A DNA stretch of 64,000 nucleotides, taken from the NCBI GenBank assembly GCA_002269645.1, contig NIVC01000037.1:434001-498000 (forward strand), given 5' to 3'. Shown here piece by piece: positions 32,228 to 51,664 of this stretch. Below the pieces are notes generated by a model, which did no database searches, was not told the DNA's origin, and worked only from the letters and a program-made list of their open reading frames with translations. A program made the translations under genes and the position numbers. The stretch comes from Macrostomum lignano (lineage: Eukaryota). Position 1 is the stretch's first letter. Each line of letters starts with the position of its first letter.

Positions 32228-33150
32228 GAGAATCGCCCATCAAATCTCAGTGAGAATCGCCCATCAAATCTCATTGATAATCTCTAACCAAATCTCAGTG
32301 AGAATCGCCCATCACATCTCATTGATAATCGCTAACCAAATCTCAGTGAGAATCGCCCATCACATCTCATTGATGATCGCTAGCCAAATCTCAGTGAGAA
32401 TCGCCCATCACATCTCATTGATAATCGCTAGCCAAATCTCAGTGAGAATCGCCCATCACATCTCATTGATAATCGCTAATCAAATCTCAGTGAGAATCGC
32501 CCATCACATCTCATTGATAATCGCTAGCCAAATCTCAGTGAGAATCGCCCATCACATCTCATTGATAATCGCTAACCAAATCTCAGTGAGAATCGCCCAT
32601 CACATCTCATTGATAATCGCTAGCCAAATCTCAGTGAGAATCGCCCATCACATCTCATTGATGATCGCTAGCCAAATCTCAGTGAGAATCGCCCATCACA
32701 TCTCATTGATGATCGCTAGCCAAATCTCAGTGAGAATCGCCCATCACATCTCATTGATAATCTCTAACCAAATCTCATTGTGAATCGCCCATCACATCTC
32801 ATTGATAATCGCTAGCCAAATCTCAGTGAGAATCGCCCATCACATCTCATTGATGATCGCTAGCCAAATCTCAGTGAGAATCGCCCATCACATCTCATTG
32901 ATAATCGCTAATCAAATCTCAGTGAGAATCGCCCATCACATCTCATTGATAATCGCTAGCGAAATCTCAGTGAGAATCGCCCATCACATCTCATTGATAA
33001 TCGCTAGCCAAATCTCAGTGAGAATCGCCCATCACATCTCATTGATGATCGCTAGCCAAATCTCAGTGAGAATCGCCCATCACATCTCATTGATGATCGC
33101 TAGCCAAATCTCAGTGAGAATCGCCCATCACATCTCATTGATAATCGCTA
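32228..33150 (+). repeat. 48-bp satellite, forward arm
   Basis: gagaatcgcccatcacatctcattgataatcgctagccaaatctcagt repeated about 19 times. Confidence 0.95.
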
Positions 33151-33267
33151 GCCTATTCCGGTCTCTCCCGGACACTCAGGCAACACTTCAGTGAGTCTCT
33201 CCCGGACACTCAGGCAACACTTCACAGAGTCTCTCCCAGACACTCAGGCAACACTTCACTGAGTCTT

Positions 33268-35187
33268 TCTCACTGAGATTTGGTTAGCGATTATCAATGA
33301 GATGTGATGGGCGATTCTCACTGAGATTTGGTTAGCGATTATCAATGAGATGTGATGGGCGATTCTCACTGAGATTTGGTTAGCGATTATCAATGAGATG
33401 TGATGGGCGATTCTCACTGAGATTTGGCTAGCGATCATCAATGAGATGTGATGGGCGATTCTCACTGAGATTTGGTTAGCGATCATCAATGAGATGTGAT
33501 GGGCGATTCTCACTGAGATTTGGTTAGCGATTATCAATGAGATGTGATGGGCGATTCTCACTGAGATTTGGTTAGCGATTATCAATGAGATGTGATGGGC
33601 GATTCTCACTGAGATTTGGTTAGCGATTATCAATAAGATGTGATGGGCGATTCTCACTGAGATTTGGCTAGCGATTATCAATGAGATGTGATGGGCGATT
33701 CTCACTGAGATTTGGTTAGCGATTATCAATGAGATGTGATGGGCGATTCTCACTGAGATTTGGTTAGCGATTATCAATGAGATGTGATGGGCGATTCTCA
33801 CTGAGATTTGGCTAGCGATCATCAATGAGATGTGATGGGCGATTCTCACTGAGATTTGGTTAGCGATCATCAATGAGATGTGATGGGCGATTCTCACTGA
33901 GATTTGGTTAGCGATTATCAATGAGATGTGATGGGCGATTCTCACTGAGATTTGGTTAGCGATTATCAATGAGATGTGATGGGCGATTCTCACTGAGATT
34001 TGGTTAGCGATTATCAATAAGATGTGATGGGCGATTCTCACTGAGATTTGGCTAGCGATTATCAATGAGATGTGATGGGCGATTCTCACTGAGATTTGGC
34101 TAGCGATTATCAATGAGATGTGATGGGCGATTCTCACTGAGATTTGGTTAGCGATTATCAATGAGATGTGATGGGCGATTCTCACTGAGATTTGGCTAGC
34201 GATCATCAATGAGATGTGATGGGCGATTCTCACTGAGATTTGGTTAGCGATTATCAATGAGATGTGATGGGCGATTCTCACTGAGATTTGGTTAGCGATT
34301 ATCAATGAGATGTGATGGGCGATTCTCACTGAGATTTGGCTAGCGATCATCAATGAGATGTGATGGGCGATTCTCACTGAGATTTGGTTAGCGATCATCA
34401 ATGAGATGTGATGGGCGATTCTCACTGAGATTTGGTTAGCGATTATCAATGAGATGTGATGGGCGATTCTCACTGAGATTTGGTTAGCGATTATCAATGA
34501 GATGTGATGGGCGATTCTCACTGAGATTTGGTTAGCGATTATCAATGAGATGTGATGGGCGATTCTCACTGAGATTTGGCTAGCGATCACCAATGAGATG
34601 TGATGGGCGATTCTCACTGAGATTTGGTTAGCGATTATCAATGAGATGTGATGGGCGATTCTCACTGAGATTTGGCTAGCGATCATCAATGAGATGTGAT
34701 GGGCGATTCACAATGAGATTTGGTTAGAGATTATCAATGAGATGTGATGGGCGATTCACAATGAGATTTGGTTAGCGATTATCAATGAGATGTGATGGGC
34801 GATTCTCACTGAGATTTGGCTAGCGATCACCAATGAGATGTGATGGGCGATTCTCACTGAGATTTGGTTAGCGATTATCAATGAGATGTGATGGGCGATT
34901 CTCACTGAGATTTGGCTAGCGATCATCAATGAGATGTGATGGGCGATTCTCACTGAGATTTGGTTAGCGATTATCAATGAGATGTGATGGGCGATTCTCA
35001 CTGAGATTTGGTTAGCGATTATCAATGAGATGTGATGGGCGATTCTCACTGAGATTTGGCTAGCGATTATCAATGAGATGTGATGGGCGATTCTCACTGA
35101 GATTTGGCTAGCGATTATCAATGAGATGTGATGGGCGATTCTCACTGAGATTTGGCTAGCGATTATCAATGAGATGTGATGGGCGAT
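33268..35187 (-). repeat. 48-bp satellite, inverted arm
   Basis: Reverse complement of the same unit, about 40 copies. Confidence 0.95.
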
Positions 35188-35761
35188 TTCGACTGTTGTA
35201 CTCTCTCTCGGACACTCAGGCAAAACTTCACTGAGTCTCTCCCCGGACACTCAGGCAACACTTCAGTGAGTCTCTCCTACACTCAGCCGGCCCCCAAGAT
35301 TTTGTCTCCCAGACGGAGCCACCGACTCCACCACAGGGAAAAGTGCAGTTCCAGTCTGGCCCTGAGTCTAAACGCTACGCATGCAAACTAGCGACCCAGT
35401 TATTTCCTAGAAATGCGCCCCCCTTCCAACACGCTATGAGCCCGTCTGGCAGGCTGACTATGGCGAATTTAATTTCGATTTTCCAGCGCCGGTTTCAGAC
35501 TCTGCACCCTGGAAACTGGACCGAATAACTGTCTCAGTAGTCGGACTTAATAATATTATCCGAACCGGAACAACACAAGTTTGTTTCTCGAGAAACGGTA
35601 TTTATCTATCTTTTTTGGACTCCGCTCCCATTACTTCCGCTTTGCCTCAGTAGATATTATATCTTTTGTCTTAGATTAGAGCATGCGGCAAAAAGACCCG
35701 CAGGGAGATCCGATTTCCTTACCGTAAATAAGCTGGCTTTCTGGCTTCCTCCTAATCACTG

Positions 35762-45690: not shown

Positions 45691-47088
45691 AGGGTAACAG
45701 TTCAGCAACTGAGGAGCCTAGGCGATGGTGATTCAAACTGAAGACCTGAAAAGAAGTTCGCTAATGCATGAATAAATCAATTACCGGTAGACAATAAAAT
45801 AATGAAGATATACACCTGCGTTTTTACAGCGCATTTGGTCGTGATTTTAGCTGTTTTTGCAAAAATTAGTTGAGAAATCGTTCCTCATTTCGCAGAGGTG
45901 GCCCGCTAGCGCAAATCTCGTTCGTTTGCGGCAACCCCGGCCTTGTACCTTTCTTCCTGCCCTGGGTGTGAGTCACTCTTTCTCACACTCGGCACTCAGT
46001 CGGCGCTCGGCCTCTCCTCTCAATCTCATTATTATCAGCTTTTTTCGGCTGGGGAGAAAAACTAATCGAGAAACGGCCCGAAGGCAGGCGCTGCATGGGG
46101 CAATCCCCTGCGATGGGGGGGGCGGAGATAAAAGATGCGTTCGGTTCGGAATGCCGATCGGGCGCCGCGCCTGCGTCGTGAGTCACTGCGTCGGGTTGAC
46201 CAGAGCAGAATCAGGATGGGCCGGCTATGCATTACAGCTGCTGTAGCTCAGGGTGTTATAAGTTAACTCCCGCTGTATGCAGCTATAGTGACACATTCCG
46301 CGGATGACGTAACAGCCGGAGCCTGCAGTCCACTTCAATCACTCACTTTCTCCTCTTCCTTCTTGAGTTAGCCCCCTCTCAATTCCGTTCTGTTTTTCTT
46401 TCTTTCCCGACTTTTCTGTCCCAACCCCCCCTTCTCTAGAAGAGTGTGAGGAAGTCAATTTCTGCTTTGACATCGGATCTACTACACTGCCAGATAAATT
46501 GGGTGGAAGAAGCTGACCGCCTGACTGACTAAAGTTGAGTATAAGCTTTTACGGGCGCCGACTCAACTCCGCTACAGATTCTAAGAAACAGATTCAGGAA
46601 TTTCTAAAATATTTTTTTGGCGTCATTCAGTACAGCTTTTTTACTAGCTCATATATACCTAGGAAGTAAGATACCCTTATTGAAAATAAGATTGGATATG
46701 GAACGAACCTTGGTTGGCATTAATTAAGGTCTGAGTAATATACATGTCATATTGTTGTTGTTGCTGTTGTTTTTGTTGTTGTTTTCGCCATTTTGCCGGG
46801 ATATACTTGTTGGTACGAAACAATGATTAAATTAGCCAGTTAATCGATTTCTCGCCTATATGTATTGGTCGAAGGCGAGGTCATTTGGTATTCACGCTTG
46901 TGCACTTGGTCTATGGCAATATCGTTTGCAACGGGCGAAAGAGAATTAAGAGACAAAAGGGCGCGAACGCGCAGTATCGATTAAATGCATACATTAAATC
47001 GTCTATGGTCAAATAATAGTGCAATAACATGATACCTATATACTAGCAATGAGTTGGATTGGCAGCATTTAAAATCGAGTGCATTATA

Positions 47089-47353
47089 CTCAGCAACATT
47101 GAAATGCCGCCACTCTATGCGCCAGTGAGCAATTTCTCTTGGACTAGTCTAAAATAAAAGATACGAGAAAACTGATCGGCTTTAATCCGTCCAACCCTCG
47201 CACACCGCCCCCCCACTCCATTCCTCAACTCAAGTCTGCCGTGGCGTAGCGAAATTGCGTCACTGGCAAAGACTGAGAGACTTTACCTGCACTCTCAAAA
47301 GTGGCTTCCACAGACAGAATCTTCTGTGATGGCCAATTTTCAATGTTGCTGAG
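47089..47353. mobile_element. Possible MITE
   Basis: Perfect 16-bp inverted repeat ctcagcaacattgaaa / tttcaatgttgctgag about 265 bp apart; no clear TSD. Confidence 0.35.
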
Positions 47354-47885
47354 AATGAAATCTTGAATGAAAAGAAAAGCGGAGACGTGACAATCTAGCT
47401 CGTATAGATAACGTGTACAAGGTAACAAAACAGGTATGAACAGATGTGTATTTACACACGAGCGTAACACCTAATGAGGCAATAACGGCGCAGCCCGATT
47501 AATTATGTACTATATAGATAGACCCACGCATACGAGTGCAACACAGCATTTAATAAACACAACTGTTTTTGCATCCATCGTGCGATTTGATACTGTCTTT
47601 ATCAAATCGACAACGGGGCTGCGCGCAAAACAGGCAAATATGAAACAAAAGTTTTTTCTCTAAACGGACAAACACAATAGACGTTACGAGTTACGAGTAG
47701 TACTTTCGTCACAATGAACTATACTAGCTGTTATGAAACAGAAAAAAATACACGCAATGCAACAACCATTGCAGTAGATATGCGACAATCGAGAAGCCAG
47801 CGTACTTGTGGGTCCTGTGTACATCGCGATACGGAATCAAAGCGTTGACGCACCATTTGACAGTCAGTCAGTAATTAAAAACAGA

Positions 47886-48593
47886 CTAGAGACGAGGTGG
47901 ATCTCCGTATGAATCGCGAAGAGGTACACATGTCTCGTCGCAATCGTATGTTCCATCCAACGGATGTCCAACATAGATTACTGTGACGAGCCGATCCCTC
48001 AGCATACTGCCGTTCTTCAGTCGGCACTGTACGCCGGGCGAATATGACGCGACAGGATCATGTCCCGCGAACACAAGTAGCCGATTTCGCCACGTCTCGC
48101 TCCTTACAGACTGGTATTTGGCATTCACAGTGAAGGTGTTGCCGTTGATCAGTCGAAGTAGCGAGAGCTACGGGTGCGATTTTTTACGGGTGCGATGATA
48201 ATAATAAATAAGTGTTGCTTATAAACTCATACGCGTATAATCGGAATTCCATGTCAATGATTTTAACTCACCCTGACATCGGAATTGTCGTCGAACAAGT
48301 CGGGACGCAGATAGTCGATAAACATGACGCTGTGTATAGTCACGTCCAACTGATTGAATAAAAATGTATTGGCTGCAGTGCGAGACGGGGGGGGTGATGT
48401 TAATAACCCGACGATCGCCACAATGCTCAAATACGGTGTGCGTTTTACCAACACCGGAAGGGCCGTACAAGTAGACGACACCCTTCTCCTGTCGCAATGG
48501 CTTCGCATACGGCACGAATCGTTGGACAGACTGTGCGTATTGTTGTAAGTCGATTGACTCCTGTCGTGGCGATATTTTCTGTGGCTGTGGTGG
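47886..48593 (-). mobile_element. Spliced superfamily-3 helicase coding region (parvovirus NS1/CRESS Rep-like endogenous element), one frameshift
   Basis: Walker A VVYLYGPSGVGKT (GPSGVGKT at 48464-48441); after removing one C from the C8 run (48394-48387), Walker B-like VMFIDY; intron GTGAGT 48271-48168 TAG; then motif B'-like LLRLINGNTFTVNAKYQ and motif C-like LLVFAG; stop at 47886. Confidence 0.7.
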
Positions 48594-48881
48594 CTGTCAA
48601 ACTGGCATTAACAGTGGCAGCAGAAGGAGTAGCGGACTCGGCAGCAGCATCATTATCGCTGCGTACTGCGTCGGCAGGATTAGTCTGTTGACTAGTGTCA
48701 GTACCGACTTGGTATGCGCCGCCCAGCATATCATTAAGCGTGCGATAGTTTGATGCACGTTGCTCATTTATGAACGATGCACAGTTAATACACACGTCAA
48801 GTCGTTCTGTACACAACCGACGGCACATCTGTACGCGTCTGAATAGACGGACTAGCTCTTGCCGACGATTGCCACGGCCAA

Positions 48882-48913
<32 letters not shown>

Positions 48914-49098
48914 TCCTGTTGCAGATTTCCTGATTGCAAAGTCCGCCGTTGCTGTTGCTGCTGCAGAAAAAGCCGAGGACGCGGTTGCGGTCGAGACAGT
49001 TGCTGCTGTTGCTGCTGTTGCTACTGCAGAGACCGAGGACGCGGTTGCGGTCGCAACGGTTGTTGAAATTGCTGATGCAAATTGCGGATACAAATTGT

Positions 49099-49172
49099 TC
49101 CGAGTGGATCGAGAATCGAACCCCCGACCTTCAAGTCGTGAGTCCGACGCTCCAACCACAACGACGCTACAA
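49099..49172 (-). mobile_element. tRNA-derived SINE family B head
   Basis: gtagcg...gtggttggagcgtcggactcacgacttgaaggtcgggggttcgattctcgatccactcgg; matches the head at 56171. Confidence 0.7.
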
Positions 49173-49355
49173 ACTAGTGGCTAAGGCGTACCTAACGCGT
49201 ACCTAAAAGAATACTTACGCGTGTTGATGAATCCAGACCTCAGTAGGTAGTGCATACAGTTTCCGACGCCCGACAGACAATTCCTGCCATGTCTCCGAAC
49301 GCGAACGCGAACCCGAACTCACATTGAAAACCAAACCTTAACTTTAACCTTAACC

Positions 49356-49392
49356 CAGGGACTACTCAAACACGGTGTCGGAGTAGTCCCTG
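49356..49392. other. Perfect 12-bp stem-loop
   Basis: cagggactactc + 13-nt loop aaacacggtgtcg + gagtagtccctg, flanked by degenerate cctaac repeats. Confidence 0.85.
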
Positions 49393-49903
49393 CCATAAAC
49401 CTAAACTTACGAGCTGTAACCCTAAGCCTAACCATAAGCCTAACCTAAGTGTAACCGTATACATGAGCCTAACCTAAATCTAGTCCAAGGTGTTACAAGC
49501 CGATCAATCGTTTTAGTTTATTGATCCATGGATTATTGATTTAATCGTCAAGTGCTATTAACCAGTCAAATTTATCCATCAGATCTCTCCACCTTAACTC
49601 ATACCGTATCAGCACAATCCATCAAGAACCTGCAGATCGATTTAATACATTAATCCATGTACGAGTATGATTGATACATTACGGAATTATAAACCGTTTT
49701 CAATGTATTGCGTATCCATAGGTCGTTTGAGTGTGATAATGCAATGCTGATTGTTTATTCCATTTTAATGCATTACAGAATTATGGGTTGAGTTAATGTA
49801 TTGTAGTACGCATTGATAGGTAGTTTGAATGCAGTTAATGAAATGATGATCGTTTTAATTATCAAATCCTTTATAAACCGTTCACTTATCGGAGCATTTT
49901 TAC

Positions 49904-50030
49904 CCGGACAGAGGTCTCCGGACAGAGGTCTCCGGACAGAGGTCTCCGTACATTGGCCTCCGGACATAGATTTGAGGGCATTGGCATCCGGACAGAGGCC
50001 TCCGGACATAGGTCTCCGGACATAGGTTTC
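49904..50030. repeat. 14-bp direct repeat array
   Basis: ccggacagaggtct x3 near perfect, followed by degenerate copies. Confidence 0.85.
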
Positions 50031-50744
50031 CGATATGCGATTGGCTGTCTACAGGTGTACAATCTAGTAGGAGAATCTGTCACGCTACCCAGTCGTGATC
50101 AACATGCATATATTCTATGGTTAAAGTAGTAGGGAAATCCGAAATTCGCCACGAGAATCCCGAGGAAGAACCACGAGAATCCCGAGGAAGAACCACGAGA
50201 ATCAACTTGGAGACCTATGTTTATAGCTGGAGGCTTTTGTCTTGATGTTTTTATTGTTGTTGCTTTTGTTGTTTTATTGCATTGATACTGTTGTTTATTA
50301 CAGTGATTTGATTCGAAACGATACAAATAATCCTCTTTGATTTATGGGTATAATAATAGTTCTATTTCGGGGTCAAACAGGTTAATGAGTTTATTTACAC
50401 ATCAAAGGGGACTTGCTATTTGGTTATAAAATACGCAAAGCTGTTGTTGCTAATGCTATTGCTTCAAATCTGCATATTCAGCAGTAAATATTGAAACATG
50501 GCTAACAACATTGAAATATTAAGATGATAAGAAATAGAACTGATCAAAAATTAAGGGCTCCTGTGTGTGTTTTGCTGTTATGTACAGTGCAGCATAAGTG
50601 TCAATTTTTTACCACGAAAACAGGCAAAGTATGTCTTTAAGCATCTGTTCATTTGCTGAGAAAAATTGAGACAGAAAAATCATAGCGATTGAAATTTGTT
50701 TGACTAATCAGAGTCAAGCAGTACTTTTATGACTCCGCCTCTTC

Positions 50745-51240
50745 TAGTCACTCCTGGTCTCTTCTAGTCACACCTGGTTACTCCTGGTCTCTTCTAGTCA
50801 CACCTGGTTACTCCTGGTCTCTTTTAGTCACACCTGGTTACTCCTGGTCCCTTCTAGTCACACCTGGTTACTCCTGGTCTCTTTTAGTCACACCTGGTTA
50901 CTCCTGGTCTCTTCTAGTCACTCCTGGTTACTCCTGGTCTCTTCTAGTCACTCCTGGTTACTTCTGGTCTCTTCTAGTCACTCCTGGTTACTCTCGGTCT
51001 CTTCTAGTCACACCTGGTTACTCTCGGTCTCTTCTAGTCACACCTGGTTACTCTCGGTCTCTTCTAGTCACACCTGGTTACTCTCGGTCTCTTCTAGTCA
51101 CACCTGGTTACTCTCGGTCTCTTCTAGTCACACCTGGTTACTCTCGGTCTCTTCTAGTCACACCTAGTTACTCTCGGTCTCTTCTAGTCACACCTGGTTA
51201 CTCCCGGTCTCTTCTAGTCACTCACAGTCTCTTATAGTCA
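50745..51240. repeat. 30-bp tandem repeat 3' of the TRIM9-like stop
   Basis: cttctagtcacacctggttactctcggtct. Confidence 0.9.
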
Positions 51241-51323: not shown

Positions 51324-51631
51324 TCACTCCTCGGAGCTCTCCTCCGACTCCGAGGGCACGTCCAGGCCGGGCCGCAGGGTCAGCTGCACATTTCGGCTCA
51401 AATTCACTGCCGGATGCAGGGGGCCGAGGCCGCAGAGGCCAGAAAACGCCACAGGCCCGTGCGGCTCGTCATTGACGTAGTAGGACAAGCTGCCCTTGTC
51501 GCAGTCCAGCCTGACGCCGATGACCGCACCTTTGGCAATGCCGCCGTCGCATCTGTCAGAGTGCTCTCCGGCGTGTAGAAACCAGCTGCGCTTGAAGTCG
51601 ATGTACATTGACCAGGACTGGGCGTCGCGAC
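51324..51631 (-). CDS. TRIM9: TRIM9/67-like, last exon (end of SPRY)
   Basis: Acceptor CGCAG at 51632; GRDAQSWSMYIDFKRSWF...GGIAKGAVIGV...PAVNLSRNVQLTL matches the TRIM9 C-terminus. Confidence 0.9.
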
Positions 51632-51664
51632 CTGCGAGGGTTGAAGAAAGACATCCAGCTCATA

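Follow-up and report, generated by a model that had tools for sequence, protein, structure and literature searches.

Cryptons, as far as the available text of PMC3212892 goes, carry a recombinase-like gene, lack long inverted repeats, have short terminal direct repeats and are proposed to move through a circle. The elements of the flatworm Macrostomum lignano described below resemble them in these respects and differ in being 8–24 kb long, in harbouring a Rep-SF3 gene, and in having a predicted recombinase outside any Pfam family. The word 'helicase' is absent from the available text on Cryptons, which describes animal Cryptons as having no terminal repeats (PMC3212892). In papillomavirus E1 and polyomavirus large T, an HUH-derived domain devoid of its catalytic motifs stands beside an SF3 helicase (PMC6668415, available part), a state shared by our elements; E1 was also the best solved match of a related Rep profile. 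Unlike these viruses, the elements had no capsid gene among the frames scanned, are integrated in the chromosome, carry a recombinase-like gene and stem from a different Rep lineage, so that inactivation of the HUH domain is likely to have occurred independently. CRESS Reps and the pCRESS replicons also unite an HUH fold, an oligomerisation helix and an SF3 helicase in one protein, and the borders of integrative pCRESS plasmids are described as set by attachment-site repeats (PMC6668415, available part); our elements differ from them in a dead nuclease, introns, an animal host and no capsid found.

Other systems are related by single traits. Tn916-type elements recombine across non-matching coupling sequences at AT-rich sites, which may be compared to the exchanged cores reported here, but they are bacterial and conjugative, and a nicking relaxase serves replication, as shown for ICEBs1 (PMC5812530, available part). 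Polinton-like viruses and virophages combine a recombinase and an SF3 helicase in an integrating element without target duplication; in the passages on them, however, the S3H is fused to TVpol or to an AEP primase and capsids are encoded (PMC12220804), neither of which was found among the frames scanned here. The helicase of our elements is instead fused to an HUH-derived domain. SF3-helicase elements occur in flatworms and other invertebrates as PEVE and PIVE of planarians and DENSOV_HM of Hydra; these are drawn as parvovirus-like with terminal inverted repeats, a description that sets them apart, and the word 'recombinase' is absent from the available text (PMC3198968). Replitrons, finally, are transposons of eukaryotes that belong to the CRESS-Rep side and end in short direct repeats, but they are presented, in the available text, with an active HUH, no fused helicase and no recombinase (PMC10288648). 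In literature listings, opening parts of abstracts and selected passages, we found no capsid-less element of eukaryotes in which a tyrosine recombinase accompanies a Rep-SF3 protein that is dead as a nickase.

Here, we analyse a gene in a stretch of 64,000 nucleotides of the M. lignano genome (contig NIVC01000037.1; hereafter the window). The window copy is a dead, frameshifted and truncated fossil of a Rep-type SF3 helicase gene. Its better preserved relatives lie in elements with sharp ends, and many of these have a recombinase-like neighbour.

The window gene

A sequence-only reading of the window had pointed out an intron-containing SF3 helicase gene on the minus strand. Its landmarks are present where it placed them, including Walker A (GPSGVGKT), the Walker B-like VMFIDY, LLRLINGNTFTVNAKYQ after the intron, a run of eight C at 48394–48387, the TAG at 49023–49021 and the CxxC segment; the exon containing LLRLINGNTF was confirmed. 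In the direction of transcription the gene and the repeat at its 5' end are composed as follows.

49086–49159, minus strand: fragment of a very high-copy repeat, abutting the truncated 5' end of the gene
48862–49085, minus strand: Gln/Ala low-complexity tract with the TAG at 49023–49021, not homologous to the HUH-derived domain found at this place in the paralogs
48498–48861, minus strand: oligomerisation-type helix, CxxC, linker and CPxxxxVC of the Rep-helicase, 35% to A-type residues 497–634
48272–48497, minus strand: SF3 helicase from Walker A to Walker B, with the C-run frameshift at 48394–48387 and no Walker B glutamate
48168–48271, minus strand: GT-AG intron, 104 nt, phase 0
47886–48167, minus strand: last exon with motif B', motif-C strand (AGH), degenerate arginine finger, C-terminal Cys pair and stop

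The 104-nt phase-0 GTGAGT..TAG intron (48271–48168) is real and has three lines of support. A GTGAGT..AG intron of 107–119 nt occupies the same codon in 11 of 12 A-type paralogs (lineages are defined below), while 4/6 B-type and 3/3 C-type paralogs read through that codon without an intron. A contig of run X13, from an organism B that is about 95% alike and with the kind of run guessed as DNA, skips exactly 48168–48271 and thus joins 48272 to 48167; a spliced transcript and an intron-less DNA copy both fit this contig.

The remainder of the earlier gene model fared less well. A second intron of 73 nt had been proposed to join an upstream frame to the helicase frame. Its GT..AG ends exist, but it is not needed, since in the paralogs a single frame runs from the CxxC region into the helicase, and no joint of 48667 to 48593 occurred in any run examined; the gene model built on this intron is wrong. 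The upstream frame of the window is homologous to the paralogs as far as CPTIRAVCEA, after which a frameshift follows near 48497. The extra C in the C run had been put down to a possible sequencing error. Contigs of three of four runs (X1, X3 and X4) had no length difference there, and the contig of the fourth, X11, differed in length at the run. The window helicase locus occurs three times in the assembly (G000) at about 100% identity with flanks in common, which we interpret as a single locus represented threefold in the assembly. Two of the three are frameshifted at the C run, and the copy on C2043 reads through. The shift is therefore no simple read error, with the proviso that contigs can hide rare alleles. 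Nor is it the only break in the helicase core, as had been stated: the Walker B glutamate is gone (IDY for IDE) and the arginine-finger position reads QCRL, as compared to QRRL or LRRM in the paralogs. With these changes and the two frameshifts, the catalytic residues of SF3 helicases are not intact in the window copy.

Two further claims held in part. From the proposed four-cysteine motif, the last CxxC is common to the paralogs and the rest is not; a second conserved Cys pair lies downstream of it, in CPxxxxVC. The absence of an HUH nuclease is correct for the catalytic residues, but a degenerate HUH domain, lost from the window copy, persists in the paralogs. Homology of the window copy to the paralogs ends upstream of 48862, at the low-complexity tract, leaving it without the N-terminal two-thirds of the protein.

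A family of Rep-type helicases

Searching the genome with the last exon returned 24 matches among 29 candidates, falling into four lineages: three of window type, 12 of A type (62–67% to the window's last exon), six of B type (45–49%) and three of the more distant C type. These and the other genome copy numbers given here are lower bounds. The window lineage was sister to A with an SH-aLRT of 98 in a quick tree of 66 helicase domains with long branches, in which the A and window rows occupy only half of the columns. On C1267, a second, diverged and broken helicase of this family (L048) is situated outside the C element, some 5.6 kb upstream of the C-type helicase, and possibly represents a fifth lineage.

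Walker A, Walker B, B', C and arginine finger follow one another in this order over about 120 residues in the A, B and C paralogs. Asn is the usual residue of motif C and is found there in the Reps compared; the family reads AGH, which is non-canonical. The window pieces alone gave only weak P-loop matches in Pfam, whereas the intronless B protein matched DUF5906 over positions 1–106 of 114 (E 0.002–0.004, below the curated cut-off). At 0.92–0.94, where recognition is just below threshold, the B protein has CRESS and plasmid Reps among its Atlas neighbours. In a profile search of 1.84 billion representatives, 90 proteins were hit. Fourteen full-length ones were chosen and aligned, and among them DUF5906 (13), RNA_helicase (10), PPV_E1_C (9), Gemini_AL1 (4) and also Parvo_NS1 were matched; the alignment of these 14 Reps had E1, NS1, AAV Rep and geminivirus Rep as its best solved matches. 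Taken together, the DUF5906 match, Atlas neighbours, profile search and solved matches support the earlier assignment to SF3 helicases, here of CRESS-Rep type.

Other approaches were less informative. The helicase had no significant sequence match in the PDB, its structural model (pLDDT 52) resolved an AAA+ domain only, with Rep, E1 and large T tying with other AAA+ proteins, and PHROGs gave nothing useful. Word-indexed homolog searches returned only M. lignano proteins, a metagenome scan gave three loci that look like chance matches and have neither helicase nor recombinase, and a scan of viral contigs found four distant Reps (22–30%). One viral contig, L187, carries two tandem sets of Rep and capsid-like genes, its Reps being about 23% like the related family. 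Among the public proteins, P0009, P0011, P0013, P0014, P0018, P0029, P0040, P0041, P0054, P0079, P0081 and P0088 make up a mostly unnamed family of Rep-SF3 proteins with an intact HUH, encoded on short contigs and having weak Pfam matches only.

An inactivated HUH domain

The N-terminal domain of the A, B and C proteins, aligned together with eight library fragments, matched the 14 Reps in hhalign with a probability of 98% (E 1.9e-13, 117 columns). H-x-H and the motif III Tyr were present in all eight of the chosen Reps and in none of the representatives of the three lineages, of which C has kept one histidine. The HUH residues and the motif III Tyr are described as needed for nicking, and loss of the catalytic motifs from an HUH-derived domain beside an SF3 helicase is the state of papillomavirus E1 and polyomavirus large T (PMC6668415, available part).

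Fragments of the dead-HUH family also occur in other public assemblies (P0003–P0007, P0010, P0016, P0017 and P0022), and the class of elements may for this reason be widespread. In five dead-HUH fragments from other assemblies (P0017, P0022, P0036, P0053 and P0060), homology is lost at one and the same residue, in F-[RK]-V-S. This common breakpoint suggests an intron donor, and hence a putative intron-bearing family in other eukaryotes.

Elements with sharp ends

The relatives of the window helicase are located in elements of 8–24 kb with sharp ends. The B and C units are about 8 kb long with differing flanks, while A elements reach 20–24 kb; on C2367 a stretch of 24 kb between one left and one right end contains both genes. 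All eight A left ends start with ACAAAATT, and six of nine A right-end motifs finish with GGAACAAAA. In all three lineages the elements end in a short direct repeat or core, and neither long inverted repeats nor a true duplication of the target is present; the element genes harbour spliceosomal introns. On C267, two 20-kb A units are arranged head to tail and share one core, which hints at a circular intermediate.

Empty sites, that is, other copies of the repeats hit by the elements, were found for the B element on C150 (4/4 loci) and for the C element on C957 (7/7 loci). In both, the right junction bears the core of the target and the left junction a variant brought by the element, so that a core of 6–8 bp has been exchanged. 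No clean empty site was found for an A element (0/5 loci), nor any for the window locus.

On C1811, an A-type helicase copy is followed, at a distance of a few kb, by two genes encoding zinc-finger and SET domains (L070:7357–8148 and L072:6080–7552, both on the minus strand; Pfam SET E 8e-16 and 2e-14), which may be cargo of a related element. The region C157 495000–582000 (L031, L034 and L161) holds two A-type units and two recombinase-like genes, inverted and rearranged, and one of the units is broken by a LINE-like insert.

The recombinase-like partner

A recombinase-like ORF was found near 6/6 B, 2/3 C and 3/12 A helicase copies, the flanks fetched being of uneven length. In B it has 885 residues and is convergent with the helicase, in C it has 670 residues and lies downstream; the two align at E 3e-7, and a third version is present in A units. 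A genome search with this ORF yielded 23 matches, distributed over 19 places, out of 40 scored. Pairing is loose in the A lineage, as nine of its 12 helicase copies had no recombinase in the fetched flanks and eight of ten recombinase-like loci in one set had no helicase.

The order R..HK..R..Y is kept in the ORF, with a non-canonical HxxR and with the first Arg or the Tyr missing in some copies. In the Atlas it lies at 0.94–0.96 to clusters of Phage_integrase (17% of members) and of the ResT/TelK telomere resolvases, with few features in common. There was no sequence match in Pfam, PHROG or the PDB (the last queried with an alignment), and a word-indexed search gave no homolog. The structural model was poor (pLDDT 37) and its Foldseek matches were non-significant, with Cre and XerD at ranks 1, 3, 4 and 5 of 156. 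In view of these database, model and Foldseek results we call the ORF a predicted tyrosine recombinase, on the basis of motifs, embeddings and junctions.

The window copy as a probable remnant

Since the window has no recombinase-like ORF, we assign its copy to the element family by the tree, the motif at its left and a right end that is weak. From left to right of the element, the non-genic features are these.

50200–50270, minus strand: likely left end, with ACAAAA at 50269 and 50240, exact base unfixed
50040–50160, minus strand: A-type left subterminal motif, matching at 73% along 123 nt three places that precede recombinase-like genes
49880–50032, minus strand: 14-nt tandem repeats inside the left end, where A-type ends have other short repeats
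49339–49409, no strand assigned: imperfect 35-nt hairpin
47085–47356, no strand assigned: high-copy MITE-like insert bounded by 19-nt inverted ends, 1280 candidates in the search
46770–47050, minus strand: possible, weak right end, with GTATATCC at 46806 and ACAAAA at 46776

The left motif is in the expected orientation and its local alignment score was 102, as compared to at most 33 in 60 shuffles; positions 50264–50203 are common to a helicase-less relative on C2858. At the candidate right end the spacing is 30, as compared to 29 in A-type ends, and the score 45.5, as compared to at most 38 in 60 shuffles. The ends of B and C elements had no match to the window above shuffles. Relatives of the left end on C2858, C212, C93, C3767 and C2622 had neither helicase nor recombinase in the stretches fetched. 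The window likely contains an internally deleted element of about 3.5 kb, with ends only partly fixed.

Between the window and the X13 contig, 26 of 43 differences were usable, the others being not displayed, in the 3' flank or beside a break. They touch 24 codons, 4 of them silent and 20 replacement. By comparison, dN/dS was 0.16–0.29 in five A and B pairs, one of them with few changes. Together with the two frameshifts, these figures identify the window copy, which has no open frame under purifying selection, as a pseudogene; other members of its family are under selection.

Proposed mechanism and alternatives

The pairing of a predicted tyrosine recombinase with a Rep helicase that is dead for nicking makes it likely that the elements excise as circles, copy themselves and re-insert. 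We consider it probable that the window holds the remnant of such a Crypton-like element, whose excised circle would replicate with the help of a non-nicking initiator-helicase before re-insertion. The partner ORF would be an active tyrosine recombinase that joins both ends into a circle across a mismatch-tolerant overlap of 6–8 bp, like the integrase of Tn916. The dead HUH domain would bind the short subterminal repeats as an origin, by analogy to papillomavirus E1 and polyomavirus large T, and the hexameric helicase might then unwind this origin for host polymerases, much as E1 and large T do. The circle, or a concatemer of two units, would integrate at a new site, the sites being short and C-AAAY-TT-like. 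The window copy would have lost its recombinase and HUH-derived domain, gained a SINE fragment and a MITE, and presumably been drifting since before the split from organism B.

More tentatively, the elements could form a class, so far undescribed, of self-replicating elements that integrate in animal genomes, in which a capsid-less circle is excised by the recombinase and a nickase-less Rep fires a double-stranded origin with host polymerases; we regard this as possible, somewhat short of probable. If this holds, a recombinase transposon equipped with a replication initiator of its own exists in animals, placed between Cryptons and small DNA viruses, and a nicking Rep has for a second time, and independently, turned into a non-nicking initiator-helicase, the switch that gave rise to papilloma- and polyomaviruses. 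The long-proposed circle of recombinase transposons in eukaryotes would also become testable, now that a laboratory flatworm offers exactly mapped junctions together with empty sites.

The main rival is plain Crypton-like cut-and-paste by the recombinase alone, with the helicase as cargo or accessory and no replication of the circle. The recombinase-only loci (8/10 in one set) and the other cargo ORFs of A elements would be expected from it, and Cryptons are proposed to move via a circle without a helicase (PMC3212892, available text). We nevertheless find it unlikely: both genes are kept in three deeply split lineages with three different layouts, the B and C elements hold little besides these two genes, the helicase is under purifying selection, and there are helicase-only copies with intact ends (the C267 pair and C2240).

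The sequence-only reading had left three options, namely an endogenous ssDNA virus, a new rolling-circle or virus-like mobile element, and a domesticated helicase; a new virus-like mobile element proved the right one. For an endogenous DNA virus whose HUH has been inactivated, the capsid would have to be too divergent or too spliced to be recognised, and integration would be the work of the virus's own recombinase. CRESS-type Reps are indeed the closest intact relatives, a distant Rep on L187 adjoins what we read as capsid-like ORFs, and A elements reach 20–24 kb with unassigned ORFs. Such a virus is improbable, however, as no capsid family was found in the 33 of 71 listed ORFs that were scanned (as unspliced frames), there is little space for one in B and C elements of 8 kb, spliceosomal introns interrupt the genes, and the ends of the elements are defined, with empty sites. 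The same ORFs contained no primase- or polymerase-fused helicase, packaging ATPase or double jelly-roll capsid.

Domestication of the window copy, as a catalytically dead helicase serving the host, would agree with its being one locus whose three assembly copies have flanks in common, and with an organism B copy that has the intron removed and is possibly a transcript. It is largely refuted, and very improbable, given the two frameshifts, the 4 silent against 20 replacement codons, the varying length of the C run and a repeat fragment in place of the 5' part. An active rolling-circle element of Helitron, Replitron or CRESS type, to which the Rep-like domain order and the short terminal direct repeats known in Replitrons (PMC10288648, available text) would lend themselves, is hardly credible when the HUH and the motif III Tyr, both required for nicking (PMC6668415, available part), are absent in 3/3 lineages and a predicted tyrosine recombinase and recombinase-type junctions are found instead.

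Repeats and surroundings

The repeat fragment at 49086–49159 had extreme depth and loose ends in 4/4 runs. From its tRNA-like look it is likely the head of a tRNA-derived SINE; ARAGORN and Rfam returned no tRNA and nothing meaningful on it. Copies of the MITE-like repeat at 47085–47356 have variable middles. A public gene model, P0002, fuses the window pseudogene to GPCR-like sequence and is named as a GPCR, which is likely a mis-annotation. Upstream of the helicase is the last exon of a SPRY-domain gene (51324–51659, minus strand; Pfam E 2.6e-10). Contigs of two runs, the kind of run guessed as RNA, cover 50407–50779, and the 3' UTR of the SPRY gene may therefore approach the left end of the element. 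Elsewhere in the window, a 48-nt tandem array at 32241–35188 is present in both orientations, flanking a short spacer with 34–35-nt repeats.
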